This document shows positions 14,578-43,503 of a stretch of 64,000 nt of DNA, one piece after another (the first letter of the stretch is position 1; each line of letters opens with the position of its first letter). The translations under genes were made by a program, and so were the position numbers. Source of the stretch: an uncultured delta proteobacterium. Lineage in GTDB: Bacteria; Desulfobacterota; Desulfomonilia; Desulfomonilales; Desulfomonilaceae. Location of the stretch: assembly GCA_963789265.1 (NCBI GenBank), contig CAWBKB010000007.1, forward strand, positions 192,001-256,000. The letters are read 5' to 3'. The notes under the pieces are model-generated. The model saw only the letters and a program-made list of their open reading frames with translations. It made no database searches and was not told the DNA's origin.

Positions 14578-14649
14578 CCTGACGGGACGCCTGAGGTGCC
14601 CACGACCGAAGCAACCAGCTCTAAATTAATGCCTGTGGGAGGTAATACT

Positions 14650-16261
14650 CTGCCGACCCTGACCATCAAATCGGAAAAAATCGAACGTCGTATCCCGTTT
14701 GACCCCGGAGCATCCTTGCGTGAAATCCTGGACGAGGCCGACGTGCGGGTTCGTGCAGGATGCAAAGGGACTGGTGCATGCGGTCTGTGTCTCGTGCGGA
14801 TTGAAGCCGGACGAGTCGGTGCACCGGGGCCGAATGAGAATACCCATCTGGATAGCTCACAACTTGCTCAGGGCATTCGATTGGCCTGCCAAGTAATTCC
14901 CGAGCAAGATTTGCAGATTGTGATCCTTGCCCCAGCTCCCAAAGCGGATTGGAAAAGCCTTCCCCAAGGAGACAGACGACGTAACGGTCGAGGCCGCGCC
15001 TTCCCACTGGGAGATGCGCCGACAGACGTGAAAGAACCTTATGGTGTGGCAGTGGATCTGGGCACAAGTCACCTAAGTCTTTCGCTGCTCGATCTTGCCG
15101 GCGGCGAATGCCTGGCAGGGCGTTATGGCCCCAACCCTCAGATGCTTTTCGGTTCAGATGTCATGACACGGCTTATCACCGCGTCTGAGTCTTCCCAGCA
15201 GGCGCAGGTGATGAGCCGACAAATCGTCATAGCAATAGGCGAAGCACTGTTGGATATCGCCTCCAGAGAGGGGATCGATCTTCAACGAGTGGTGAGGCTT
15301 GCTCTGGTCGGAAACACTGCAATGCTGGCACTGTTGTCAGGGCGAAATTACAGTCGGTTGATTCAACCGAGCCACTGGACCAAAGCCGTCGATTGTCTGC
15401 CTCAAAACACGGAAACGTGGGCTGAAGCTTGGGGCATTCATCCCAAGGCGAGCATACAGGTCATCCCGCCTCTGGCCGGCTTTGTGGGCTCCGATTTGCT
15501 GGCGGGCGTGGTTACGACCCGCCTGACTGAAGACGGAGTCGGCTGCCTTCTCATTGATTTCGGCGCCAATTCCGAGATAGCCCTGTGGGACGGACAAGCC
15601 TTGTGGGTCACCTCTGCCGCTGGGGGGCCTGCCTTTGAACGGAGTGGCATCGAATGCGGACTGCCCGCGGAAACGGGAGCCATTTATAGGGTACAGCGTG
15701 CAGCAGAATGGAATGCTTAATTTTGCAGTCATCGGCGACCAACAAGCGCGCGGCATCTGCGGTTCGGGCTTGGTAGATCTGATTGCCAACCTGGTCAGGA
15801 CAGGTAGATTGACTAACATGGGCCGGTTCACACCGTCTGTTCCGGGAAACGAATTTACGCTCGTGCGAGGTGAGCCGGACATCATTCTGACCAAGAGGGG
15901 TGTAGACGTTTTTCAGCGCGGCAAAGCAGCCATTGGGGCAGGCGTGCATGTATTGCTGAAGCAGGCGGGCATGAGGTACAAGGATTTGCAGCGAATTTGC
16001 GTCGGCGGCGCTTTCGGCAGTTTCCTGGATATCGCCAACGCCCAGGAGATCGGGTTGCTGCCCAAGATTCAACCAGAGCTTGTGGAGCTTCACGGAAACA
16101 CGGCATTGGCCGGTTGCGAAGACGCGATACTGTCACACTTGGCTTCTCAACGTCTCGCGAACCTCAGAGATCGCCTAAAAGTTATCAATTTATCGCAGTG
16201 TCTCAATTTTGACGACATATTCTTGGAGCATTTGTACCTCCAACCGTCGCAAGGAGAGTGA
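14650..16261 (+). CDS. Reductive activator of corrinoid proteins (RACo/RamA-like; 2Fe-2S plus ASKHA ATPase); apparent 1-nt insertion near 15693; start uncertain
   Basis: CKGTGACGLC..RLACQ ferredoxin; AVDLGTS, NPQ..FGSDVMTR, GFVGSD, IDFGANSEI, SAAGGPAFE, then GICGSGL, GGAFGSFL, GNTALAG in ORF 15635-16261. Confidence 0.9.
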
Positions 16262-20949: not shown

Positions 20950-22374
20950 ATGGGACAAAGGAACCTAGTGTTGAAGAGGATGTGCATGATTTTGCCGTCA
21001 GGTCTTGAACAGATCGAAGCTGAACAGCTCAGTCTTTTTAGGGTGGACAGACAGACGTATGGTCCACCGGAAAAGGACAAACCTTCGGCCTTCAGCGACC
21101 CTGCGTTTGCCAACAACAAGATAATGCCTATTCATCGATGGGTACCTTGGATAGCCGGATTCTCTGCTGATTTCGTTCGGAACGCTTTATCTAACTATTT
21201 GAATCGGAAATCAACCGTCCTTGATCCGTTTGCTGGAGTTGGTACAACTGTGGTCGAAGGGGTTATGGCGGGTCATAATGCTATAGGTTTTGAGATCAAC
21301 CCTTACGCGGCTTTGGCGTGTCGCGTCAAGGTCAACGCATCCAGGATGTCTGCAGATGCTTTAAGGAACTGCATTTTACGGTTCCAAAATTTCTATAAGC
21401 AAAAAGTCTCTGGCGCATACACTCCCGTTAGCTCCCCCCCGTTAGGCTTCCGGACCAGAGCCTCGTTTTATAGCCCGGATGTATTACACAAGGTCCTGAC
21501 AATTCAAGATTTTATAAACCTTATCGAAGAGGATGATCTTCGAGACCTGTACAAGCTCGCCTTCGCTTCCACGATGGTCCGGTACTCGAATTATTCATAT
21601 GAGCCAAGCTTGAGCAGGCGTGTAAGCGCTGGGAAAAAGGATATCGACGACTTTCCTGTAGCCCGGACGATTTTGGAAAAACTGACGGAAATGCTGGAAG
21701 ATGTTGTCTGGTGCCAAGCTCATCCCGCCAAGGATCGGGTTTTCTCCAGAATCATCAATGATTCCTTTTTCCAGTATGAGAGGCACTTGGAGGCCGAGTC
21801 GGTTGATCTGATAATTACGTCGCCACCATACCTGAACAACTATCATTACAATCGGAATACTCGACCACACTTATACTGGTTAGGATACGTCAATAGTCCC
21901 AGAGACATGATACCCTTGGAGCAAGCAAACTTCGGCAAGTACTGGCAAACTGTTCGAGATGCTGAGAGAGTCGACTTGGACTTTTCCGCGCCGGATACCG
22001 ATCTAGCCGAACAGATTGAATTTCTGAGGACTCTTAATCCTGAAAAAGGAGTGTACGGTGGCAATGGCTGGGCCAACTACGCTGCATCATACTTTAATGA
22101 TTGTTACAAGTTTGCAAATGGCATCCGCTATGCGCTCAGACGCGGAGGTACGGCCTTAGTTGTCATCGGAAACAGTATATTACAGGGGACATTGATCGCA
22201 ACAGATCGGCATTTCGGCAAAATAGCCGAGTCCATCGGACTGGAATTGACCAATATTCACGTGCCGCGACCAACAAGAGTCGGAAATAGCATCATACAAT
22301 CGGAAGTCCGTGTAAAGAAAGCTAAGAGCTCTCATCAATTGTATGAGGCTGTAGTAGAAATCAGAAAACACTAA
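20950..22374 (+). CDS. Site-specific DNA amino-methyltransferase (probably N4-cytosine)
   Basis: IHRW..W.AGFS; motif I VLDPFAGVGTT precedes catalytic ITSPPY. Confidence 0.88.
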   Translation: MGQRNLVLKRMCMILPSGLEQIEAEQLSLFRVDRQTYGPPEKDKPSAFSDPAFANNKIMPIHRWVPWIAGFSADFVRNALSNYLNRKSTVLDPFAGVGTTVVEGVMAGHNAIGFEINPYAALACRVKVNASRMSADALRNCILRFQNFYKQKVSGAYTPVSSPPLGFRTRASFYSPDVLHKVLTIQDFINLIEEDDLRDLYKLAFASTMVRYSNYSYEPSLSRRVSAGKKDIDDFPVARTILEKLTEMLEDVVWCQAHPAKDRVFSRIINDSFFQYERHLEAESVDLIITSPPYLNNYHYNRNTRPHLYWLGYVNSPRDMIPLEQANFGKYWQTVRDAERVDLDFSAPDTDLAEQIEFLRTLNPEKGVYGGNGWANYAASYFNDCYKFANGIRYALRRGGTALVVIGNSILQGTLIATDRHFGKIAESIGLELTNIHVPRPTRVGNSIIQSEVRVKKAKSSHQLYEAVVEIRKH

Positions 22375-22986
22375 TCACGTAAAGTGGCCTAGCACCTCCT
22401 CAACAATTCTTTCCAGCGACGGTGCGGTTCCGGTCAAGCGATCCGCCCATGGTCTTCCTGGATGGAGAACATCCCACTCCGATTTTGCTTGATTGTACCT
22501 CCCCGCTCCAGGATCATGATTGCCGAAGCCATCGACAACCGTATTCCAGATAGGGGCAAATCTTCTAATAAGTTCTGCCTCAACCGCCCCGATCAGGTCA
22601 CTTTCAATGCCTCGAAGAATCATGAACCTGCAACGGAACTGGACGACCTGCAGGTTTGATGCCTGTGCAATGTTCCGAGCATGTTGTTTCAGTCTATTGA
22701 ACAAGGTTGAGCCTTCGCTTTGAGCAGTCTTACCGGTTCGCCATCCAGCAGGGACCGTTTTGCCGACATAAATTGGCTGTGCAGACGAATCCCGATTGAG
22801 GTCGGCCAAAGCGGCGTACAACTCAAAATCACCAGCGTAGTATAAAGCATAAATCCCGCTCCCTGAGAATCGATCAGTCGGTGGTAATTCGTGGACAGGG
22901 GTATGAGTAAAAAAGCGGATGGCTTCATCTACTACTCTTTGGAATTGAGCAGACCTGAAAATATGTAAAGCCAAGTTTACGGGCAT
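22375..22986 (-). CDS. Eco29kI-family (GIY-YIG) restriction endonuclease
   Basis: GSGIYALYY..PIYVGK..L..RL.QH..E..LI..F.PIWNTVVDGFGNHDPGAGRY.Q..S.WDVLHPGRPWA; stop codon abuts the MTase stop. Confidence 0.92.
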   Translation of the reverse strand: MPVNLALHIFRSAQFQRVVDEAIRFFTHTPVHELPPTDRFSGSGIYALYYAGDFELYAALADLNRDSSAQPIYVGKTVPAGWRTGKTAQSEGSTLFNRLKQHARNIAQASNLQVVQFRCRFMILRGIESDLIGAVEAELIRRFAPIWNTVVDGFGNHDPGAGRYNQAKSEWDVLHPGRPWADRLTGTAPSLERIVEEVLGHFT

Positions 22987-31415: not shown

Positions 31416-32417
31416 ATGAACCAAGACCATGATGAGACGTACCATATGAGTCGTAATCCCAAAAGGGATTTGTTTCCTTATACAGAGTTGGCGACATCAC
31501 GACCGGACGCGGAACCATACGAATTGTCAGATGACTTGCTAAATTGGCTGGCTTGGGAATTTGTGGAACCTGACAAGTGGGGTTGGGTATTTAGAGGTAT
31601 CAGAAAGCACTACTATCCGCTGAAGAGTGTGCTGGACAGAAGAATAGACAACAGAAGAATATTTGGAAGTGCGCACTCCTACTCCGAAATTGATAGACAG
31701 ACCGCCGAGGGTTATCTCCTCAGCCAGTTCAAGAAAGGGGCACATCATTTTATTGAGGCTTCGATGGTCCCAGACGACAACAACACCTTAGAATGGTTAG
31801 CGCTAATGCAACATTACGGGACTCCCACACGGCTACTCGACTTCACGCGTTCGCCGTACGTAGCTTGTTTTTTTGCTCTAGAAGAAATCTCTACTAAACA
31901 AGCACAACCAAAAGACACAATAAAGGAAGATAAGAACGCTGCTGTTGAAAATTGCGCAATCTGGGCTGTTGATACCCTCTGGTTGATAAGAAACAGTTTT
32001 CGCCGTATTGCCAAGAAGTTTCCAGGATATACAGAGGACAGTCTCTTGGATTCCGGGTTCATGGCCAAGAATTTCGATACACTTTCTGTGAAGTACCAAA
32101 AGCCTCTGATTTTACCAATTGTACCGTCGCGATCAAACCCGAGACTCCTAGTTCAACAGGGCCTTTTTCTGTGTCCAAGCATAGCTGAGGGAGGTCTTGA
32201 GAAGAACCTCCTATCCTACAACGATGACACGCAGGATATGGATCAGCACGTGTGCAAAATTATAATTGAAGGCCGAATTCGGACAGAAGTCCTATCTGAA
32301 CTTCGTCTCATGAATATCAGCCGCGCAAGCCTTTTTCCGGATCTGCAAGGATATGCAAGCTCACTATCTCACGAGCTAGAATACAGATCATCAGATGAGA
32401 TAAAACGGTTGAGGTAG
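31416..32417 (+). CDS. FRG domain protein
   Basis: WVFRG, WLALMQHYGTPTRLLDFT.SPYVA.FFA, NPRL..QQGLF, LFPDLQG. Confidence 0.92.
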   Translation: MNQDHDETYHMSRNPKRDLFPYTELATSRPDAEPYELSDDLLNWLAWEFVEPDKWGWVFRGIRKHYYPLKSVLDRRIDNRRIFGSAHSYSEIDRQTAEGYLLSQFKKGAHHFIEASMVPDDNNTLEWLALMQHYGTPTRLLDFTRSPYVACFFALEEISTKQAQPKDTIKEDKNAAVENCAIWAVDTLWLIRNSFRRIAKKFPGYTEDSLLDSGFMAKNFDTLSVKYQKPLILPIVPSRSNPRLLVQQGLFLCPSIAEGGLEKNLLSYNDDTQDMDQHVCKIIIEGRIRTEVLSELRLMNISRASLFPDLQGYASSLSHELEYRSSDEIKRLR

Positions 32418-32984: not shown

Positions 32985-33353
32985 ATATGAAGCTGGAGTA
33001 ATGCCTATTAAGTTGACATTGGAGCCACATCCGTTAGAGATTAGCCAATGCACGTCCGTGAGAATCGACACGCCTTTCTCGGTATCATTGGTGAGGTGAT
33101 GCGATCAGAGGGACACTGAGAGAGGACGGCAAGAACGGATCAATGCCAATAAAGTGGACTAGGGCGTGAAGCGAGTATGAAACGTCAAAGAGGCCCAGCG
33201 TGTCATTCCAGCGTGCTCGGCAATCCGTGGCCTAGTCGGAATTGGCGTTGTTTTCCGGCCCCTTAGACTGCTCCAACCGCGCCGCTGAATTGGGCGCTGA
33301 GCAGATTCAGTCGCCACTGAACGTGAGTGACTGTGGGTGTGAAGGAAGTCAAC

Positions 33354-34313
33354 ATGGCATCTGCAGATTGGGTACCGCTGGTAGGTGAGTTCGATGTCGT
33401 CGAGGGGGAAGTGCAATTTCATGGCAAACGTGTGCCCTTTGTCGAGCCGCCTGGAGGATTGGAGACGGACCAGAAAGATCAACCGGCTTTCGGGATCATC
33501 CTGAGCAGTTTGGCGCTTGCTGATGGCAAAGTCAGCGCCGAGGTGGAATTCGCGCAGGTCACGGCCCATTCGATCTGCGAATTGGCCATCGTTTACGATG
33601 TCAGCAGCCGCCACTTTGTCACTGCTGGCTTGGGGGGCGAAACATGGGCGATGTACGGCATTCGCGAGTTCGGAGGCCCAAGAACGGGCGGACAGGGATG
33701 GTGGGGCCATCTTGCAGGCGGGGACCGCGCGAATCTTAAACCGGGCCGGGTATATCGAGTCGCGGTTCAGCTTCGGGGTGCATTCGTGACGCTTCACGTT
33801 GACGGCGTTGCCGTTGGAACCGCACAGGTTAGTTCCCCAATGGGTCGCGCCCGTCAAGTCGGATTTTTGTGCAGAGCGGACCACCTCATCAGCATACGCA
33901 ACTTGACGGTCGAAGGCACTAAGCCGAAAGCATTCGTAGTGATGCAGTTTGGTGAGGGGTATGACGAGGTATATGAGGATGTTGTAAAAGAGGTCTGCAA
34001 ATCCTACGAAGTCAACGTGCTGCGGGCTGACGAAGTGTCAGGGCCCGGTCTGATCATTAGCGATGTGGTTCGCGAAATCGCCGCCTCGCAACTGATCATT
34101 GCTGATATCACCCCCGAAAACCCCAACGTCTACTTTGAGGTGGGATACGCACTCGCGCTCGGAAAGCCGACTGTCCTTCTCGCACAGAAAGGCACCTCGC
34201 TGCCTTTCGATGTTGCCGGGTTTAGGGTGCTGTTCTATGAAGACACGATCGGCGGAAAGAAACGGCTGGAAGAGGGTATGAGAAGGCATTTGGCCGCCAT
34301 TCTTGCCGAGTGA
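33354..34313 (+). CDS. Beta-sandwich (ConA-like) domain fused to a nucleoside 2-deoxyribosyltransferase-like domain
   Basis: C-terminal AFVVMQF..RADE..IIADIT.ENPNVYFEVGYALALGKP..LPFDV; N-terminal half rich in predicted beta strands. Confidence 0.75.
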   Translation: MASADWVPLVGEFDVVEGEVQFHGKRVPFVEPPGGLETDQKDQPAFGIILSSLALADGKVSAEVEFAQVTAHSICELAIVYDVSSRHFVTAGLGGETWAMYGIREFGGPRTGGQGWWGHLAGGDRANLKPGRVYRVAVQLRGAFVTLHVDGVAVGTAQVSSPMGRARQVGFLCRADHLISIRNLTVEGTKPKAFVVMQFGEGYDEVYEDVVKEVCKSYEVNVLRADEVSGPGLIISDVVREIAASQLIIADITPENPNVYFEVGYALALGKPTVLLAQKGTSLPFDVAGFRVLFYEDTIGGKKRLEEGMRRHLAAILAE

Positions 34314-34890: not shown

Positions 34891-35308
34891 GATCCTGATC
34901 GACACGAACCTCTGGATTTAACTCTATGCACTAGATCCGCAGGCCAAACGCAATAGGATCGAAGAGTTGGTCCAACAAAATTTCGCGAAAATCATAGTGA
35001 GCACGCAGATTCTGGGAGAATTTTATCACGTTGTAACAAGAAAAGGGCTCCTGACACGCGAATCTGCTAAGGATATTATTATCGAGATGGTAGCGACCTT
35101 TCCGGTGTCGGAAATCGGAACAGCAAATGTCTTGAAGGCCCTCAAGATTCAGGAAATCTTTCATTACTAGTATTGGGACAGCCTAGTCATGGCGACAGCA
35201 ATCCTTACCGATTGCGATATCCTTTATTCAGAGGACATGCAGCACGGTCAATCTGTGCAAGGGAGAACCAGGATCATCAACCCATTTCTCGAAGTACCCG
35301 AAATCTGA
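34880..35308 (+). pseudogene. PIN-domain (VapC-like) toxin with two nonsense codons
   Basis: MKDRILIDTNLWI*LY..STQILGEFY..HY*YWDSLVMATA..LYSEDMQHG..INPF; TAA 34919 and TAG 35168 in frame. Confidence 0.85.
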
Positions 35309-35311
35309 AAA

Positions 35312-35412
35312 TCTCCGTCAAGGTCGTCTCTAGACTTTCCTTCCGCAAAGTGCACCGCCTCGCAGGCCGCGTCGAGCATGTGTCTCAGCCGAATCCGGTC
35401 ATCCTCCCGCAT
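35312..35412 (-). pseudogene. Truncated HEPN/DUF86 (HepT-like) toxin, N-terminal ~32 codons only
   Basis: MREDDRIRLRHMLDAACEAVHFAEGKSRDDLD, then runs into the antisense of the PIN gene; no RxxxxH motif. Confidence 0.75.
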
Positions 35413-35707
35413 ATTGCACCTCAGCCTCAGCAATTACTTTGTCCCTGAAATAACGACTCAGCTCTTGAGGGGTCCGAAGATCCACCTTGCGACCGCCGAG
35501 ACCGTCTGAGAGTTCTTGCTCCATATCAGCAAGCTCAAAATAACCCGGCGTGCTCCCTTGCTCGAATTCGACGAGGAAATCCAGGTCGCTTTCAGCTCCG
35601 AAATCGTCGCGTAGATACGACCCGAAAATGGATAGCTTCCTGACATGGTGTCGGCGGCAAAAGTCTTTGATGAAATCACGAGGAATGACCGGACGCTCTT
35701 GGTTCAT
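35399..35707 (-). CDS. Minimal nucleotidyltransferase (MntA-like antitoxin)
   Basis: LSIFGSYLRDDF..ESDLDFLVEF..GRKVDLRT..LSRYFR. Confidence 0.9.
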   Translation of the reverse strand: MNQERPVIPRDFIKDFCRRHHVRKLSIFGSYLRDDFGAESDLDFLVEFEQGSTPGYFELADMEQELSDGLGGRKVDLRTPQELSRYFRDKVIAEAEVQYAGG

Positions 35708-36356
35708 CGGACCCTCCTTCCTCACGGGGCCACCGGAGCATAGTCTTGTTCACAAAAAATATCCTTTTATCAGATGGAAGGCAACCGGGAAAGCCTCGAT
35801 TGAAGTCAGGCACCGGCCTAGCCTAGCCAAACATCTCATATTATGGCCCACTCATACCCGCATGGATTTGACTGACCGGCTTATGGGCGTCACTAAATAC
35901 AGCTAAAGCGGAACGCGACATTCTTTCTCAATCCCTTACTCAATGCTTCTCGGGGGCACTTTTGGCCTGAGTTTCTCATATGCAATACGCCGGCGGGCTC
36001 GCCTTTCATGAGATCTTCCATTTGTCTGTCAACAATTAAGTCGCCCGGGGCGCATGCCATTCCATCCTGCGGTTCCTCGCATACGCTGGGTGTCATGTTT
36101 TCCAATGAATCATTGACGCGTTGCCTGTCTATGATACAATTAAATTAGAGGGTCCTACTTTTATTAGGCCAACCCACGGAAGGGCGAAGACCCGATACTT
36201 CGTCATAGAGTGGCCTACAAGGATAACTTTCTGAAAAAATGGTACGGGCACCCGTTGAGAATTCAGATCCACGGGTCCAAAGAAACTCCTTCTTTCATTC
36301 ATCTCTGACATAGGCTTGTCGGCCTGGCATCAAACTGTCTGCAAAGGAAAGGGGCT

Positions 36357-37574
36357 ATGGGTGAAACTGCTTTCGATTTCATGAAAATCTGGACCCAAGG
36401 CGACCAGGAATCGGAATTCAAGCTCAAGAGCGTATTGCTCGACGGATTGGATTCCGTGGTCCAAGCACAGGGCGATGTGCTCTCAAAAATCCGAGTGGAT
36501 CGCTCGATAGCCACTCCTGTGGTTCGCTGGATGGAAGAAAGGGGTTATCCTTCTGCTGTCACTACCCAATTGACGGAAAAAACTATGGTCTTTAGCGGCC
36601 TACTTTTCGGTCGGAGTGTCAATGCAGACTCAATCCGCAAGGTGATCCGAGCAGGGACCATTCTCGAACGTCCGCGAGATGGCTGCCAAGTGAAGATTTC
36701 ATCGCTCGACGGGCTTTCGGCCGCGGTGACGGCATACGGCAACACCAGTTTGGCCGATGATCCGGCACCTGTCGCTTGGGATGTCATTTCCGAGGTATGG
36801 TCTGACTTTCGAGATGCTTCCGGGCCCCGATCGCTTGACAGGAAATCCCGCGAGGTCGGCACACAGATATTCGCCGAGACATTTGAGATTCCCAAAACCA
36901 GGAAGAATACCAAGTACGAAATCATTGAATTTGAATCAGAGCATCAGATTCTCGCACTGATTGCCAAGCTCAGGCGTCAACTCGCGTATGCCATACTCAG
37001 ATCCCGGCCTTTCCATGACGGATCGCAATTCGTATGGGGGAACAAGACCGAAGAGCCGACCCTATGCGGTCTCTGCACTTGGCCGGTTGTAACTTACGAT
37101 GAAATTCCCAATCCGAATGTGTACGTCAACAAAAACGGGCAGGCTCTTACCAAGACTGATCTGGACAATCTTGTCCGCGGGCTTTGGCTTGACGAGCATG
37201 CGGACTACAACAAGGGCGACTGGTGGATCGCCTGTCATCCTGCCGTCCACCAATTCATCCAGGACTTTGACATTTGCTATCGACGAATCGAGAAAAAAGA
37301 CAAAACTGTCGGTTTTCATGTAGATGAATTCCATTCCAAGATCGGCAAAACCTTTCCCATCCTATCCGAGCCGTTTATGCGGCCCGGCGTGCTGATCGCG
37401 GTGAATTTCAAGGCCTTCAAATATGGCTATTATGCTAACGATTCTCTGGAACGCCAGGAGATTCCCACTCAGGGCCGATATCAACGCTGGCTTATTTCCT
37501 TCCAAACGTACGGCGTGGTAGCTCGCAATCCCAGGGCCAATATCGGCATGATCTACGGACTGCCGGTCAGTTAG
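36357..37574 (+). CDS. Putative phage major capsid protein (DUF5309/SU10 MCP-like, HK97 fold)
   Basis: 405 aa; RWMEE followed by a beta insertion, GTQIFAETFEI (cf. NxTQIF), TLCGL, terminal beta strands QTYGVVARNP..GMIYGL; SD AAGGGG. Confidence 0.7.
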   Translation: MGETAFDFMKIWTQGDQESEFKLKSVLLDGLDSVVQAQGDVLSKIRVDRSIATPVVRWMEERGYPSAVTTQLTEKTMVFSGLLFGRSVNADSIRKVIRAGTILERPRDGCQVKISSLDGLSAAVTAYGNTSLADDPAPVAWDVISEVWSDFRDASGPRSLDRKSREVGTQIFAETFEIPKTRKNTKYEIIEFESEHQILALIAKLRRQLAYAILRSRPFHDGSQFVWGNKTEEPTLCGLCTWPVVTYDEIPNPNVYVNKNGQALTKTDLDNLVRGLWLDEHADYNKGDWWIACHPAVHQFIQDFDICYRRIEKKDKTVGFHVDEFHSKIGKTFPILSEPFMRPGVLIAVNFKAFKYGYYANDSLERQEIPTQGRYQRWLISFQTYGVVARNPRANIGMIYGLPVS

Positions 37575-37698
37575 TTCAAATAAGCTAAACCCCGTTAATT
37601 ATCAAATATCTGCGTTAAATCAACTCCATAACTACTTTTTGTCTTATCCGCTTCACGTGTGGTTTCACGTTTTCCATTTGATGAAAGGAGAATAATGC

Positions 37699-38622
37699 AT
37701 GATCGAAACCGAGGACCAACGGCGCTGGTGGTTCGCCACTCACCCGGAGTTTAGCTGGAGCCGTCGAGGTATAAGAGGTGACAACAAGGTAGATCCGGCG
37801 GAAGTCGATCAATATGTAAACAGGGCACTCAAGTACGAAAGCGGGCCTGTCGGGGAGCTGCTGAAATCGGTGAAGAAGCATTTTGGTACGGAAGCCTACC
37901 CCAACGAGCATGACAAATTAGCCGACAACCGTGGTACTGATTCGTCGTCCCAGCAGCCGAAGCAACCTCAGGCAACGATTGGACCACCCGAACCGCCCGG
38001 CCTTAGTGATCGTGCTCGATATGTTTTGGACATTGTGTGTCCCGGCCTAACCAAGGCGTATGATAGGTGGCGAACGGGCTATTACAACGCATATCCGTGG
38101 GCCCCAGGTCCTGTTTACGATGCACTTGGCGATTTGATGAGTCTGGTGCCCATCGGCCTTGCGAAAATTCAAGCCACCCTGGCGAAGGCAGTAAACCCGG
38201 CCGAGATTGCTGCTTTACAGAATGCTCGCCAAGAGTTACTTAAAATCTGGGATCACGCAAATTTCCCTCGAGGATGGGCCATTGAAGACCACTTGGGCCG
38301 GGATCTTCCCCGTACCTTCAAGGGTATTGACGGGTTTGAGAATGGAGTGGCCACGAGTATCAAGAGCATGGACCTCCGCCTAAACTCGTATCAAGATCCT
38401 GCCAAGATTCTCTCGCAAGGCCGGAAGTATGTTGATCAGGTGGCCAACTTTGACGGAGCGCGCATGGGAGACACCCGGATTAGCGCCGAACAGATAACCG
38501 AAAGGGTCTTACGCCTCGGTGTGCCCCCCGGTGCTACAAAGACCCAGCAGTCGGCTCTGAAAAGTCTGGTTGAATACGGTAAACAAAACGGCGTGAAAGT
38601 GGAGGTTATTAGAGTGCCATGA
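37699..38622 (+). CDS. Polymorphic toxin: unrecognised N-terminal leader, Pro/Gln linker, EC869-type CdiA-CT PD-(D/E)XK DNase
   Basis: RGWAIEDHLG..LP.TFKGID.F..GVATSIKSMD (E..D..SxK), I..RVL.L.VP, YGKQNGVKVEV; SD AAGGAG. Confidence 0.8.
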   Translation: MIETEDQRRWWFATHPEFSWSRRGIRGDNKVDPAEVDQYVNRALKYESGPVGELLKSVKKHFGTEAYPNEHDKLADNRGTDSSSQQPKQPQATIGPPEPPGLSDRARYVLDIVCPGLTKAYDRWRTGYYNAYPWAPGPVYDALGDLMSLVPIGLAKIQATLAKAVNPAEIAALQNARQELLKIWDHANFPRGWAIEDHLGRDLPRTFKGIDGFENGVATSIKSMDLRLNSYQDPAKILSQGRKYVDQVANFDGARMGDTRISAEQITERVLRLGVPPGATKTQQSALKSLVEYGKQNGVKVEVIRVP

Positions 38623-39062
38623 AATGCGCAGGAGCATACAAAAGAGAGAAGAAGATATATCTTAACCCTAGTTCGAAAACGACGAAGGGCCTTTGGATCG
38701 GTACGTCTCCACGAATTATTTTTGATGAGACGGAACCTCCCTCAGTAAAAGGTAAATATCTAAAAGAAGTTCTGAGCCATTCCCAAGAGGGTGTACCTCA
38801 TCCTACAGACTGGGACAGCTTGCTCCAGAAGTTTCTGAAGGAGGTAGGCGTTAAATCATGGAGCAAATTCGCTAATACTGCCCTTTCATGCACATTTGAC
38901 CTTAAAGGAGATCAGTTGGAATTTCTTCCGTGGCGGAATTCGGGTCCCCGGGAGCACTACAATTTTGTGCCAATTAGGGATCGAAAAATGACCATTTCCT
39001 TCGATGCTTCCGATGAAGAGTTGGGCCTCTTTTTGGAAAAGGCGTTCGAGGCTTGTGAATAG
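38619..39062 (+). CDS. Cognate immunity protein, CdiI (DUF1436/EC869-like)
   Basis: ATGA overlap with the toxin; GVKSWSKF..A..C and terminal ASDEELG.FL.KAF..C. Confidence 0.75.
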   Translation: MKCAGAYKREKKIYLNPSSKTTKGLWIGTSPRIIFDETEPPSVKGKYLKEVLSHSQEGVPHPTDWDSLLQKFLKEVGVKSWSKFANTALSCTFDLKGDQLEFLPWRNSGPREHYNFVPIRDRKMTISFDASDEELGLFLEKAFEACE

Positions 39063-39273
39063 AAGAGGGAAAGAGCCTCATTGCATGCCCGAGCCGAAAG
39101 AGCAGTAGTGAACCTCCAAGGGAATTGGCGCGGAAGAACAAGCATGGGGTCAGCTCTTTCCATTTGGCATTCACACGAATCTCTGATGTCTGATCTGAAC
39201 CGACTGCCATTACCTGAATATTTGGACTCAAGTAATATTGAAGCTCATGCCGCGACCTACAGTGATATTTTTA

Positions 39274-39409
39274 TTCTCGTTCCCAGGCTCCGCCTGGGAA
39301 TGCCCGCCTTGGAGGCTCTGCCTCGCCTTTGACTGCTAAATGAAGGCGATTTGCGGGCAGAGCCCGCGAGATATGAGTTCCCAGGCAGAGCCTGGGAACC
39401 AGAATAAAA
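39274..39409. repeat. REP-derived element CTCGTTCCCAGGCTCCGCCTGGGAA..TTCCCAGGCAGAGCCTGGGAACCAG
   Basis: Terminal hairpins in inverted orientation; internally deleted direct copy at 40974-41053; relatives at ~20620, 28428 and 30317. Confidence 0.85.
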
Positions 39410-39701
39410 CGCAACAAAATCGAGGCAGCTAGAAACTCGTGGGATAAAAGCAAAGCAGGCGGATGAACTTAATGATATTCGCAGCGGCGGCAAAGGGAGC
39501 GGAGTGTGGACGGAAGAAGAATTGGAGAGGATCCGGAAGACTGGGAAATTCCCGGATGATGCAGTATGGCATCATGACCCTACAGTTGCCAATGCTCCTG
39601 ATAGGGCCGTCGATCAGAATGCAGTACATACAATGCGCGGAGGACCAAAAGCTCATTTGCGAGACGGTCACCACGGGAATTATCAGAATCCAAAAAAATA
39701 G
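39408..39701 (+). pseudogene. Orphan toxin C-terminal module, Tox-GHH-like HNH/EndoVII nuclease (no leader)
   Basis: Open frame ..ELNDIRSGGKGSGVWTEEELERIRKTGKFPDDAVWHH..TVANAPDRA.D..AHLRDGHHGNYQN* beginning at the repeat edge. Confidence 0.7.
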
Positions 39702-39763
39702 GTACATTGAAAGTATAAAATCATTTCATCGTTCGCATGAACGAATTGGAGGAAGCCGCAAAA

Positions 39764-40265
39764 ATGAAACCAGGACTTCTGGAAAGTGTGCTGATTCGGC
39801 GGTACCGGTAGACCTAAAATCTCTGTCAATAGCGCCTTGGTTCAACAATGCTGGAAGCTCGACGAACCCGATAATTCCTCCCTGTTGTACATGGGAATGA
39901 AATGGGAGGGACGCTTGGGCACCCGTTTTGCTGGCCTAAAGGGAATTTACGGTAATGCTTTCGGTGGATTCTTGGTCGGGAATTCCCTCAAGATTGCGGT
40001 ACTGCTGCCCCGCAAAGTGTGGGGTCTCTGGCGGATAGATGAGCTCCAAATGCTCCGTCCGGTGAGAATAGCTTTGGCAATTGATCCTGCCATTGATTTC
40101 TTTATGGACGCGGCCAACGTCTGGTATTACGGTCATAAGGAAGGTGAGCTGTACGTCTTCGATGCTGAGACGGATGAACTGGATTCGTTAGGGCCAATTG
40201 AACCGGCTCTGGACAGCCTTATCGATCAATGGGAAGAAGCCGGCCAACCGCTTCCGAAAAATTAG
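39764..40265 (+). CDS. Probable immunity protein of the orphan toxin (apparent frameshift near 39794)
   Basis: SD GGAGG, ATG 39764 MKPGLLESVL then GGTGRPKIS.. joining ORF 39837-40265; FFMD..NVWYYG..GELYVFDAE resembles SUKH-like C-termini; position after a toxin. Confidence 0.55.
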
Positions 40266-40280
40266 ACCCGTACGGCGGCA

Positions 40281-40928
40281 TTGATGAGTCCGAGCCGGCG
40301 AAAAGCACGAACTGAAGCGATATTGAGGAAGGAAGGTATTCCCTTTCTTCCATCGCTTCCGTGCATTGAGTCTGAGGACGACACTGAATTGCGCAGTGCG
40401 GAAGAGGTCGGTCTGCGAATGCTCTGCCTGTTCAGTGTCATTGGCACCGCTTACGACCCGTCCGACGCATCATATAAACGGTATCTCAAGAAATACCGCC
40501 TCTGGGGCTACCTCACTCCTGATGAACTGTCTTTCATGTCCAATCCCGCGCCGGACCACAGGACTTGTATGATTTTGACTTGGCGGGTAGAAGCACTACT
40601 GGTGCTGATGTGGGCGGTGCGTCTGTTCAAAATGCTGCCATTCCCCACCCATCAAGTAGACAACCCAAAAATTATCGCCAAATTTCCCAGCTTTGACAAA
40701 TCTCCGCAGCCTTTTATCCTTAGCCTCAAACTGCGCCCTAAACCTACAATTCTGAATAACTCCGATCTCATATATCGGCTCCACTGGGCCACTACCCAAG
40801 CAAAGATAGAGGGACAGCCTCCGCCCGGCGGACTCGATCCGGAAATTGTCTATGAGTGGCATTATGCGATAAATTGGATTACAAAATATGATGATGCGGA
40901 TTGGGATGATGTCGCGACTGATACTTAG
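40281..40928 (+). CDS. DUF4272 domain protein
   Basis: WRVEALLVLMWA, DLIYRLHWA, VYEWHYAINW, DWDDVATDT. Confidence 0.85.
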   Translation: MMSPSRRKARTEAILRKEGIPFLPSLPCIESEDDTELRSAEEVGLRMLCLFSVIGTAYDPSDASYKRYLKKYRLWGYLTPDELSFMSNPAPDHRTCMILTWRVEALLVLMWAVRLFKMLPFPTHQVDNPKIIAKFPSFDKSPQPFILSLKLRPKPTILNNSDLIYRLHWATTQAKIEGQPPPGGLDPEIVYEWHYAINWITKYDDADWDDVATDT

Positions 40929-41123: not shown

Positions 41124-41159
41124 AAACAATAGGGGCATCACGATGCCCCTATTGTTTTT
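41124..41159. terminator. Bidirectional intrinsic terminator-like hairpin
   Basis: AAACAATAGGGGCATC-AC-GATGCCCCTATTGTTT followed by further Ts. Confidence 0.65.
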
Positions 41160-41194: not shown

Positions 41195-41539
41195 TCAATT
41201 CCCTTTGGCGATTCCTTTTGGTCCGGGTTTCCATCTATACAATACTTTGGCAGGCTCTTCTTCCAGCCGACTTATGAAATCTTCCATTTGTTTGTCAATT
41301 AAGTATGGCGTACCCAGGATTAGGCGTGAAATTACAGCGGGCACCGCTACAAAATGAACATGCTTCGGCATGAGACAGTGCGCCCAAATCTCCACGTGAA
41401 GCTTCCTGCGCCGTTGAGCCATCAGATCGATATAGGCGCCGTAATCTTCATGACGAAAAAAGGTCAGCAGTCTGCGATTGCCTCGCTGTGTGACATGATG
41501 AGGCATTCCCGGCGCCACGACTCGTGCTACTTGACCCAT
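41195..41539 (-). pseudogene. REP-associated tyrosine transposase (RAYT/Y1) with large internal deletion, flanked by REPs
   Basis: ARVVAPGMPHHVTQRGNRR..CLMPKHVH (HUH) fused through a REP to the KPGPK tail; REPs at 41176-41200, 41297-41319 and 41574-41600. Confidence 0.85.
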
Positions 41540-42138: not shown

Positions 42139-43503
42139 CTATTGTTTTGCCTTTTCATAGCATGGAGGTTCGCGCGTGGAGCGCGCGGTCGTGATTTTCA
42201 CGGGGTTGTCGTGTACGCCGGGCTCGCGCGAAATTCTGGGTATAAAATATGAGCGCCTCGCCTCAGTCAGCATGTCGGAAAATGTGATGGTCTTCTTTCC
42301 GAAATACCAAGGGGCTCGTTGGAACAGTGGAACCCTTCCCATTCTGAATTGGGTAACAAACCAGAGCACCAAGAGAGAATAGGCCCAATAGGCGATCAGA
42401 GCAGCCCGAGTGACGGATCTTTCTCGTCGGCACTGGGGGTCGGCGCTTCCCAGAAGGCTCTTCGTTTCCCGGTTGGTAATTTCCGTGCTCCATCTGTGTG
42501 AGTATCTCTCAACTACCTCTTGGTCATGGGCTTGGCTATCAGTGTCGAAGAATGCCGTGTCAGGGTATTTGCCACAGGGATCACGGACCAAGACAACGGT
42601 GAGGGGTTCATTGCCGGCCGCACCGTGCCAGATGGCGTCGAATTGAAACAGTCCCACGATGGTCTCTTTCCCGTAAAGGCGGGTCCAGATCCATTCCCAT
42701 TGGATCCCGGTATGCCTGAAGAGAGTCGGGAGAGAAACCAGCCGTGCACCCTTCTGCCTTGGGCGGCCCCTGGTCTTGGGTCGGTCGGGCTCCACGAGGT
42801 CGTACAGCGCAGCGTTCCGAGGCAACTTACCGGTGATGTGAACACCCTTGTGTCGCCTCTTGAGCAGCTTCTTGTTTGAGTACCCTCCGTCGACGATGAC
42901 TCGAAGCCTCATGGAAGGGCCAAGCCACGAACGTGTCAACTCAACCAAGTCGGCAGCCAATTCCGATTTTGACCTGTACGTGCTGCCATGAGGTTTGATT
43001 TTGGCCTTCTCAGGCCACCACAGACGGGCAGCATACGGCAGGCAAAAGACCCTTTCGGAGATGCCCGGCAAACGCACGGCTACTCCTATGATTACAAAGC
43101 AAACCCCATATCCGATGGGCTTGCCGCCCTTGGGAGCGTCGCCGTCATGTTGGAATCCCGCCCCGCAGATCTTCTGGCCCACTCGAGGATTCAGGGTATC
43201 GTCCACAATAGTCTCCACCTCGGAGGCGTCCGGCAAGAGCGTTTCCACGATCATCCTGAAGACCTTAAAGGCCACTTTGTCCGGGTCCCATCCGGCCCTC
43301 ATCAGGAATTTGTACACGCTTGCGAAGTGCTCCGACTCATGGAGCCCCATCGTGAGAATTACTTGACTGACAGTGTGCGTCCCAACGGTGAGCACCCACC
43401 CTGTTATCAGCACGACAAAGTGCCGGAGACTCGGCTCCGTGAAGCAATCCTTGAAACGGATCTTGTCAATCTCAAACGGCTGTGGCACATTCCGCTTGGC
43501 CAT
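42139..43503 (-). CDS. DDE transposase
   Basis: IVDDT, IVDGGY, RGRPRQKG, YSHRWSTEITNRETK. Confidence 0.9.
   Translation of the reverse strand: MAKRNVPQPFEIDKIRFKDCFTEPSLRHFVVLITGWVLTVGTHTVSQVILTMGLHESEHFASVYKFLMRAGWDPDKVAFKVFRMIVETLLPDASEVETIVDDTLNPRVGQKICGAGFQHDGDAPKGGKPIGYGVCFVIIGVAVRLPGISERVFCLPYAARLWWPEKAKIKPHGSTYRSKSELAADLVELTRSWLGPSMRLRVIVDGGYSNKKLLKRRHKGVHITGKLPRNAALYDLVEPDRPKTRGRPRQKGARLVSLPTLFRHTGIQWEWIWTRLYGKETIVGLFQFDAIWHGAAGNEPLTVVLVRDPCGKYPDTAFFDTDSQAHDQEVVERYSHRWSTEITNRETKSLLGSADPQCRRERSVTRAALIAYWAYSLLVLWFVTQFRMGRVPLFQRAPWYFGKKTITFSDMLTEARRSYFIPRISREPGVHDNPVKITTARSTREPPCYEKAKQ

Follow-up and report, generated by a model that had tools for sequence, protein, structure and literature searches.

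Phage-head-linked polymorphic toxins with a new leader domain and a dedicated capsid paralogue in the Desulfomonilaceae

What is a phage-type major capsid gene doing at the head of an array of toxin and immunity genes? The question is raised by a 64-kb stretch of contig CAWBKB010000007.1 from an uncultured member of the family Desulfomonilaceae (the whole stretch is called the window, and coordinates without a contig prefix are its own). Six co-directional genes on the + strand, between 36357 and 40928, encode a 405-residue capsid protein, a 307-residue toxin, a CdiI-type immunity protein, an orphan toxin tip, a 142-residue protein and a DUF4272 protein (Table 1). This layout had been proposed from a sequence-only reading of the window, and its genes, coordinates, strand, 124-nt gap between capsid stop and toxin start, CdiI overlap and DUF4272 assignment are all borne out by open reading frame (ORF) and Pfam analysis. 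The same reading had recognised no other phage or toxin-delivery gene, and Pfam likewise detects no terminase, portal, tail, integrase, CdiB, Rhs, VgrG/PAAR, LXG or MuF gene among 51 other ORFs tested across the window, which include some of those shorter than about 130 residues outside 30-46 kb. The answer developed here is that these are phage-head-linked polymorphic toxins with a new leader domain and a dedicated capsid paralogue.

The defining feature of the system, not picked out in the sequence-only reading, is a conserved N-terminal leader shared by a polymorphic protein family. A search with toxin residues 1-195 returned 93 homologues of about 170-360 residues, and the first ~70 residues are common to all of them. 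Behind this constant part their C-termini belong to the EC869-like (PF21111), GHH (PF15636), AHH (PF14412), LHH (PF14411), NucA/B (PF14040) or DUF2380 (PF09533) families, and further leader proteins end in Tox-REase-5 (PF15648), WHH/colicin-DNase (PF14414/PF12639) or Col-Pyo DNase (PF21431) domains, so that at least eight different DNase C-termini occur behind the leader and nearly all recognised ones are nucleases. The leader itself consists of a nearly invariant block (residues 1-25, with the motif QRRWWFATHP), a variable charged linker and a second block (residues 32-66); in the alignment of homologues M1, T4, Q7, R8, R9, W10, W11, F12, A13, T14, H15 and P16 are invariant, and some members carry the first block alone. 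No Pfam family covers these ~70 residues, and the MuF family has no match at E ≤ 0.1 in the window toxin or in 12 other leader proteins scanned, in keeping with the earlier proposal of a non-MuF system. The RR-W-W-F stretch was considered as a twin-arginine (Tat) signal and ruled out on inspection, there being no hydrophobic h-region behind it.

Where does the leader occur? When 1.84 billion cluster-representative proteins were searched with a leader profile, 158 matched at E ≤ 0.001, nearly all of them small proteins with the match at or near the N-terminus. Two long repeat proteins (P0184 and P0229) were discarded as spurious, their match to the leader's block B being the sum of many weak repeats; in their Pfam matches, too, no single stretch passes alone. 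Within the order, which comprises one family, the leader is present in 22 of 70 genomes and 12 of 26 genera, and in a sample of the phylum it was found in 3 of 401 genomes, all three from the same bacterial family. The source names on the public records of close homologues are likewise Desulfomonilaceae, Thermodesulfobacteriota. As judged from these searches, the leader is a new N-terminal domain of polymorphic toxins and is restricted to this bacterial family. The window toxin is the sole intact leader gene of its own genome (G000). A second leader toxin of G000, with an AHH nuclease, lies at C7:112216-113625 on the - strand (L035) with an Imm11 gene 3' of it; its leader gene (C7:113407-113625) is interrupted by an in-frame TGA behind the first leader block, and a 27-codon leader remnant is found at C7:146926, just beyond the phage-like module described below.

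The genes behind the leader have the composition of a toxin/immunity array. Residues 200-303 of the window toxin match PF21111, a DNase of restriction-endonuclease fold (2.5e-22), as well as two CdiA-CT chains of solved structure, 4zqu_A (E 1.4e-13) and 4g6u_A (E 1.5e-13), confirming the EC869-type toxin that had been suspected. The 147-residue protein encoded next matches PF07262 barely above threshold (7.7e-6; 26.3 bits against a cut-off of 25) and has no match in the PDB at E ≤ 0.1; its homologues, 69-81% identical, lie 3' of EC869-type toxins or tips in G062 and G063, with three tandem copies in the latter. The orphan Tox-GHH module is visible in the DNA: the 65-residue ORF at 39504-39701 has no Pfam match at E ≤ 0.1, but tblastn aligns 39399-39698, at 68% identity, with residues 133-230 of the leader protein P0045, which has a PF15636 GHH domain. 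It corresponds to the last ~98 residues of a GHH toxin, whose N-terminal two thirds are gone, and an in-frame stop lies near 39405. The 142-residue protein has no match in Pfam, PHROG or PADLOC and is read as an immunity protein because its homologues recur directly 3' of GHH modules in five other loci (L038, L041, L042, L044, there twice, and L049); it is thus the probable GHH immunity gene, as had been guessed. The DUF4272 gene is probably a further orphan immunity gene; one homologue, in G049 (L055:10067-10711), has the portal gene on one side and a short-leader gene on the other, and another lies beside a capsid fragment in G063. Immunity genes directly 3' of a toxin are seen as CdiI in the window, as Imm11 after the AHH toxin and as immunity-like paralogues in the fetched loci, and the leaderless GHH tip with its 142-residue partner gene has counterparts in similar arrays at L041 and L044. 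With its constant N-terminus and variable tips, adjacent immunity gene and orphan cassettes, the array counts on sequence grounds as a polymorphic-toxin locus. Orphans come in two kinds, leaderless tips such as that at 39399-39698 and complete leader toxins with only the last 20-90 capsid codons 5' of them.

The identity of the first gene was established from sequence and predicted structure. The protein matches the SU10_MCP family (PF17236, E 5.8e-28, 98.7 bits against a cut-off of 24.1) and the major head protein family phrog_1328 (6.8e-10). Its AlphaFold2 (AF2) model is of moderate quality (pLDDT 62.4, pTM 0.55), and the best Foldseek match of the model is the SU10 capsid chain 7z48_F (E 2.5e-11, probability 1.00), which bears out the HK97 fold expected from the sequence-only reading. 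TM-scores to SU10 chains are low (0.34-0.45) because the model is of moderate quality. Further matches include other phage capsids, encapsulins, P4 and a gene-transfer-agent capsid, with the family 2 encapsulins 8t6r and 6x8m at E 3e-8 to 6e-8. A single-sequence phmmer search of the PDB gave no meaningful match, and Pfam gave no match to an encapsulin family.

A second SU10_MCP gene lies on the same contig, 100 kb upstream, and is identical to the window capsid at 283 of 405 residues (70%). To which of the two do the capsids of other genomes belong? The window capsid protein was matched in 47 of the 70 genomes. A tree of 40 full-length sequences (IQ-TREE quick search, LG+G4), which leaves out fragments covering less than about 380 residues and capsid genes of genomes from which no loci were fetched, splits into two sides of 14 and 26 rows with an SH-aLRT of 100. 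On the smaller side a leader gene follows directly after 13 of the 14 capsid genes, and the fourteenth lies inside a head block of G032; this clade spans 9 genera, or 10 with the fourteenth row. The larger side holds the capsids of phage-like modules and four lone copies from genus g4. Median ratios of nonsynonymous to synonymous substitution (dN/dS) are nearly the same on the two sides, at 0.087 for the toxin-linked capsids and 0.081 for the module capsids, where pairs with saturated dS (15 of 78 in the first set, 63 of 91 in the second) do not enter the median; the window capsid and its nearest relative differ by a dN of 0.073 and a dS of 0.846. As these sequences indicate, the toxin-linked capsids, here called MCPtox, form their own clade of functional copies under purifying selection. 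Both types are collinear and 62-70% identical over all 405 residues, without gaps in the window's own pair, MCPtox carries no fused scaffold-like extension, and seven strict sites separate the two (23, 172, 227, 326, 332, 338 and 344).

How firmly are capsid and leader joined? In the 70 genomes, 20 of 47 two-part leader genes and only 2 of 27 short-leader matches have a co-oriented capsid 3' end within 1 kb on their 5' side. The metagenomic set comprised 79 loci with 87 leader starts, of which 14 with less than 400 nt of 5' sequence were set aside; at 31 of the 73 kept, a capsid 3' end was found in the same position. Spacing is 123-156 nt in 17 of 22 measured genomic cases. From the side of the capsid, a leader gene follows directly after 14 of 57 full-length capsid genes. 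When 17 capsid-to-leader junctions were aligned, the ribosome-binding site (GAAAGGAG in the window) proved to be the sole conserved element of the spacer. A conserved promoter, terminator or RNA element in the spacer was thus rejected, and a weak 5-bp hairpin at 37655-37670 is not conserved. Synonymous changes separate the leader codons of different loci, and outside the ribosome-binding site the spacer shows no conservation; the leader is therefore kept for its protein function. A survey of gene neighbourhoods, as the sequence-only reading had suggested, found capsid, leader toxin and immunity gene without other phage genes in 9 further places among the fetched loci. The flanks of these lone loci share no gene, and the unit that moves or persists is therefore capsid plus toxin plus immunity gene. 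Within it, the capsid 3' end and leader are the constant part, and the nuclease tip and immunity gene the variable part.

The second capsid gene of G000 sits in an SU10-like, co-directional module of about 21 kb (C7:124783-146157; loci L003 and L034) with head, tail, lysis and terminase genes. It encodes an SU10_portal protein, a 94-residue protein, a scaffold-like protein and the capsid; a 431-residue protein, an NlpC/P60 protein, a small membrane protein and an M15 peptidase; and an SU10_adaptor, a Kelch-repeat fibre, several proteins without assignment, a large terminase (phrog_2, 4e-22) and a small protein with an HExxH motif. A scan of module and flanks that took in some of the small ORFs turned up neither an integrase nor a replication family, and no prohead protease was recognised in the module. 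Gene order is conserved in most genera, and the portal gene is present in 49 of the 70 genomes. A Mut7-C gene and a 1227-residue kinase gene stand beside the portal in both G000 and G066, and an EamA transporter gene does so in four genera; these shared host genes fit vertical inheritance of a domesticated element, and the module may be such an element, similar to a gene transfer agent.

In relatives, leader toxins lie within this module or at its edge. They come after the portal gene in G032 and G049, after the module capsid gene in G032, and in G027 and G029 after the gene of the HExxH protein p107mp and after p241, the gene behind the terminase; in G034 and G049 they are also found 5' of the portal gene, preceded by a copy or fragment of MCPtox. 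Both capsid paralogues are found co-directionally in a single head block of G032, in the order portal, toxin and immunity genes, MCPtox, p94, scaffold, module capsid, toxin, with a toxin and immunity set at each end of the block. The portal gene is present in 21 of 22 leader-positive genomes, the exception (G028) being 84% complete, and the leader is absent from all 11 genomes of the four genera that have no portal match. In a search of viral contigs (IMG/VR) no complete phage with leader toxins was found. The same module appeared there once, with a short-leader gene after p241 (L076/L081), and distant capsid relatives, 50-58% identical, had another gene order.

Several observations on the module stand apart from the toxins. 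The 94-residue protein between portal and scaffold (L003:8913-9197) has no family assignment and is conserved above the portal, being 76-95% identical in 19 of the 20 module loci found by tblastn and 54% identical in L066. Genus g4 keeps an intact module-type capsid gene on its own (L067:9838-11043, L068:8439-9644, L069:8058-9263, L070:10160-11365), in synteny with housekeeping genes for a PocR/PAS histidine kinase, DsrC, an acyl-CoA ligase and an ABC ATPase; the portal genes of these genomes lie on other contigs, some with an in-frame TGA, and no leader toxin was found in the genus. A single in-frame TGA lies in the portal frame of each of six genomes (G020:C38:38212, G023:C6:273195, G021:C41:501155, G061:C14:9894, G027:C1:831, G062:C135:50915). 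Genes for glycosyltransferases (GT2 plus GT9) and an NAD-dependent epimerase lie inside the module in several genera (L052:6810-8522, L072:17451-18557, with homologues in L061, L062, L073 and L074). The leader was also compared with the module's scaffold as a possible mimic of its coat-binding part; hhalign gave a probability of 0.5% (E 0.12, 29 columns against scaffold residues 14-43), which is not significant.

Taking as established what the genes are, the fold of the capsid and its clade under purifying selection, its conserved linkage to toxins that are polymorphic, the orphan cassettes and the co-occurrence with the module, we tentatively favour a reading in which the locus is an auxiliary island of a phage-derived particle, consisting of capsid paralogue, cargo toxin and immunity gene, with the leader as loading signal. 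The leader is proposed to act on the procapsid because nearly all of its recognised cargoes are nucleases that need a cytoplasm, because their genes lie among head genes and because a capsid paralogue is maintained beside them. As a particle-loading signal it would bring the toxin into the procapsid; MCPtox, the diverged paralogue, would co-assemble with the portal, scaffold and main capsid protein of the module and be the structural partner specific to the toxin; and the particle, whose remaining parts the module would provide in trans, would eject the nuclease into the cytoplasm of neighbouring cells, of which those without the immunity protein would die. Toxin and immunity cassettes would be exchanged by recombination through the constant capsid 3' end and leader, leaving orphans behind. 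Recombinational cassette replacement in contact-dependent growth inhibition (CDI) and Rhs loci yields such orphans. Complex prediction for MCPtox with leader residues 1-78, run on alignments made for this analysis, lends weak support with a score of 0.40, against 0.00 for the best of 3 controls; its runs agree in at least 81% of contacts, and the partner pLDDT is at least 60. The sequence-only reading had left a choice between a domesticated capsid and a head built in trans. The portal-to-terminase module 100 kb away, with leader toxins inside it in relatives, speaks for the latter, and a stand-alone shell is less favoured, as the leader occurs only with the portal in all but one genome. A broader version, in which the whole family has domesticated an SU10-like podovirus into a toxin-injecting particle whose machine is built by the core cluster (portal, scaffold, capsid, adaptor, fibre, terminase and lysis genes) while dispersed islands supply capsid paralogue, leader-tagged nuclease and immunity, seems to us rather doubtful.

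Several points weigh against the auxiliary-island reading. The majority of leader genes (27 of 47 in the genomes, 42 of 73 in the metagenomes) have no capsid 3' end upstream, and since, in addition, only 14 of 57 capsid genes are followed by a leader, a capsid gene is not obligatory beside each toxin. Many of the capsid pieces 5' of a leader are the last 20-90 codons only, and a pure role as recombination handle would also explain them. The leader gene is truncated after an intact MCPtox in 3 of 13 toxin-linked loci (G025:C182, G049:C4, G062:C137), and among the MCPtox copies one carries an internal TGA, with three others split. Module integrity is unproven because the Kelch fibre gene of G000 reads as two overlapping frames (L003:16761-17513 and L003:17215-20000, together C7:134761-138399), which may be a frameshift. 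The counts of co-occurrence between leader and portal are descriptive only, because the genomes are related and not independent. Clade-specific capsid residues are not placeable on the shell interior because confidence in the capsid model is low (pLDDT 62.4). The predicted binding of MCPtox and leader is a weak pass only: of 157 solved complexes 116 reached the mark, as did 2 of 215 mismatched pairs, and those reaching it with scores of 0.60 or below were just 18 of the 157 and both passing mismatches. No RNA-sequencing run is listed as matching 36357-39062; three DNA soil-metagenome runs from one study are listed, two of which contain part of the stretch. Particles, loading, co-assembly, delivery and killing are inferred from the genes.

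Could the leader toxins do without a particle? They might be colicin-like bacteriocins released by lysis, carried as morons of the module, with the leader as an uptake or translocation domain and the capsid gene providing only a strong late promoter and an upstream homology arm for cassette exchange. The toxin genes do sit where morons usually do, at the gene junctions behind portal, capsid, p107mp and p241, and the module encodes lysis candidates in its NlpC/P60 protein, M15 peptidase and small membrane protein. Nuclease colicins and S-pyocins consist of a constant N-terminal part and a nuclease, followed by an immunity gene, and the domain order of the leader toxins is the same. The frequent capsid 3' fragments of 20-90 codons before toxins and the 27 of 47 leader genes without an upstream capsid fit this explanation, which would also account for truncated leader genes after an intact MCPtox and for split or stop-containing MCPtox copies. 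It leaves unexplained, however, why a full-length capsid paralogue is found away from the module in at least 9 fetched loci, in a clade of its own with a dN/dS of about 0.09. The proteins are moreover short (about 200-320 residues) and have no recognisable receptor-binding domain, and the weak pass of the MCPtox-leader prediction points the other way. We consider lysis-released bacteriocins unlikely.

Still less probable is a stand-alone, encapsulin-like shell, in which MCPtox would self-assemble and sequester the leader-tagged nuclease independently of the module. The layout of a shell gene beside a terminally tagged cargo gene is that of an encapsulin operon, Foldseek matches family 2 encapsulins, no other phage gene lies nearby in the window, and in g4 a module-type capsid survives alone among housekeeping genes. 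Yet the leader is confined to portal-bearing genomes (21 of 22), leader toxins are embedded in the head module itself, and MCPtox is collinear with the module capsid at 62-70% identity, has no scaffold-like extension and matches no encapsulin family in Pfam; polymorphic tips, immunity genes and orphans, for their part, indicate conflict between cells and not storage.

We give just as little weight to a role in defence or exclusion, with the capsid paralogue as a decoy or dominant-negative subunit against related phages and nuclease plus immunity protein as an abortive-infection toxin-antitoxin. The array does lie in a defence-island-like stretch, with an Eco29kI pair, an FRG protein of type PDC-S15, a TIR-like effector, a PDC-S09 nucleotidyltransferase and an IS4-like transposase, but none of the 5 array proteins tested matches a PADLOC model, a leader joined to polymorphic tips, together with orphan cassettes, is what marks toxins that are exported, and the same leader toxins lie inside the element's own structural module. 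That the decaying capsid remnant of a prophage merely came to lie beside an unrelated toxin island is barely conceivable: the split or stop-containing capsids of G047 and G030, and three loci with a truncated leader gene, could be so read, but chance adjacency is contradicted by its recurrence at 20 of 47 and 31 of 73 loci with near-fixed spacing, by the separate clade of toxin-linked capsids and by purifying selection equal to that on module capsids, so that the remnant which the sequence-only reading had named as its own refutation is not what the homologues display.

How does the auxiliary-island reading compare with known systems? MuF toxins, as described by Jamet et al. (2017, PMC5576092), are polymorphic toxins on temperate phages, the MuF part being a head protein bound to the portal. 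They are the nearest described system: toxin/immunity pairs lie in head-morphogenesis regions of phages, and the constant N-terminus is thought to place the toxin in the capsid. The present toxins have no MuF domain, and their constant part is a leader of ~70 residues, against a head protein of ~300 residues in MuF. They differ further in the dedicated major-capsid paralogue, in the SU10-like module without a visible integrase and in the islands away from phage genes.

Other systems, without polymorphic cargo, are functional analogies. The internal proteins of phage T4 carry a short N-terminal signal to the prohead and are ejected into the target cell with the DNA; the capsid targeting sequence, of about 10-20 residues, binds the scaffolding core and is cleaved by the prohead protease. 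Small proteins with an N-terminal signal, here a proposed one, are common to both cases, whereas the present cargoes are polymorphic toxins with immunity genes and no prohead protease is recognised in the module. Encapsulins resemble the locus in having an HK97-fold shell gene beside a gene with a conserved terminal tag, and differ from it in that the shell gene here is of the SU10_MCP family, has a 70% identical paralogue inside a portal-to-terminase module and accompanies a polymorphic toxin with immunity gene and orphans. Gene transfer agents and PBSX share with the module a set of structural, terminase and lysis genes without visible integrase or replication genes, kept across genera with shared flanks; polymorphic toxins set the present case apart, and its module is a putatively domesticated one. 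We know of no gene transfer agent or PBSX-type particle that carries polymorphic toxins with immunity genes.

From the CDI system of E. coli EC869 (4g6u) the locus shares the homologous C-terminal DNase domain and the CdiI-family gene after it. The window has, in contrast, no CdiB and no filamentous-haemagglutinin region of CdiA, neither family being found among its scanned ORFs in a search that covered the window only, and its toxin is a free-standing protein of 307 residues with a different N-terminus. The auxiliary vgrG/PAAR islands of type VI secretion systems (T6SS) offer an analogy, with a structural paralogue away from the main cluster beside a cargo toxin and its immunity gene; there the machine is a contractile tail, here a capsid, and no T6SS gene lies in the window. 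Full-text literature searches, with subscription journals and supplements outside their coverage, returned no description of such an arrangement.

Table 1. Features of the array and its borders in the window
Feature	Position	Strand	Basis
Promoter-like site 5' of capsid gene, TTGACG-16-TACAAT	36113..36140	+	consensus scan only; 10/12 matches, with TG
MCPtox, SU10-type (HK97-fold) major capsid protein paralogue, 405 aa	36357..37574	+	PF17236; toxin-linked clade
Ribosome-binding site, GAAAGGAG	37683..37690	+	8 nt 5' of toxin ATG; 17-junction alignment
Leader of toxin, ~70-78 aa, two conserved blocks	37699..37932	+	alignments of homologues; no Pfam family
Leader toxin, 307 aa: leader, middle region, C-terminal EC869-type DNase	37699..38622	+	PF21111; PDB chains
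CdiI-type immunity gene, 147 aa	38619..39062	+	PF07262; 4-nt overlap with toxin stop
Orphan GHH (HNH/EndoVII) toxin tip, without leader and middle part	39399..39698	+	tblastn to P0045
Probable GHH immunity protein, 142 aa, no family	39837..40265	+	recurrence 3' of GHH modules
DUF4272 protein	40281..40928	+	PF14094, 3.9e-61
Terminator-like hairpin at array 3' end, 15-bp stem and T run	41124..41157	+	consensus scan only; not above chance by count

Of the two signals that border the array, the promoter-like site is a weak candidate, as the scanned region contains 7 such sites against a mean of 5.2 in shuffled sequence, and the terminator-like hairpin is strong; both come from consensus scans with counts not above chance. 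The defence-island-like stretch 5' of the array (20950-22986, 31416-32417, 33327-34313 and 35248-35725) holds the Eco29kI endonuclease and methylase, an FRG-domain protein (PADLOC candidate PDC-S15), a protein with a TIR-like effector domain, and the PDC-S09 nucleotidyltransferase with a small partner ORF. On the 3' side follow, both on the - strand, an unclassified ORF of 114 residues (41195-41539) and an IS4/DDE_5-type transposase of 454 residues (42139-43503), a pair that fits a variable, mobile region. Elsewhere the scanned ORFs of the window are housekeeping (metabolic and regulatory), defence, toxin-antitoxin or transposase genes. One of them, a RACo-type gene for corrinoid activation, reads in two overlapping frames on the + strand (14596-15720 and 15635-16261), between which the RACo_C_ter profile is divided (positions 3-55 in one frame, 60-251 in the second); a frameshift or an error of assembly may lie behind this.

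To our knowledge, the delivery route of phage-linked polymorphic toxins has so far been proposed and not shown, even for MuF toxins, and the present system, with a leader of ~70 residues, a dedicated capsid paralogue and a defined head module, is a compact and testable case. Whatever the mechanism, a new N-terminal polymorphic-toxin domain is defined, and there are signs of a perhaps domesticated SU10-like element in an environmental family, the Desulfomonilaceae of the Thermodesulfobacteriota. If the leader does load an HK97-type capsid that injects, the system would be a new interbacterial weapon made from a phage head, would show how duplication of a capsid gene creates cargo specificity, and would provide a natural tag with which proteins could be loaded into phage-like particles. 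Should domestication extend across the family, the dispersed islands would be the capsid counterpart of the vgrG-effector islands of T6SS and a new delivery route for polymorphic toxins.

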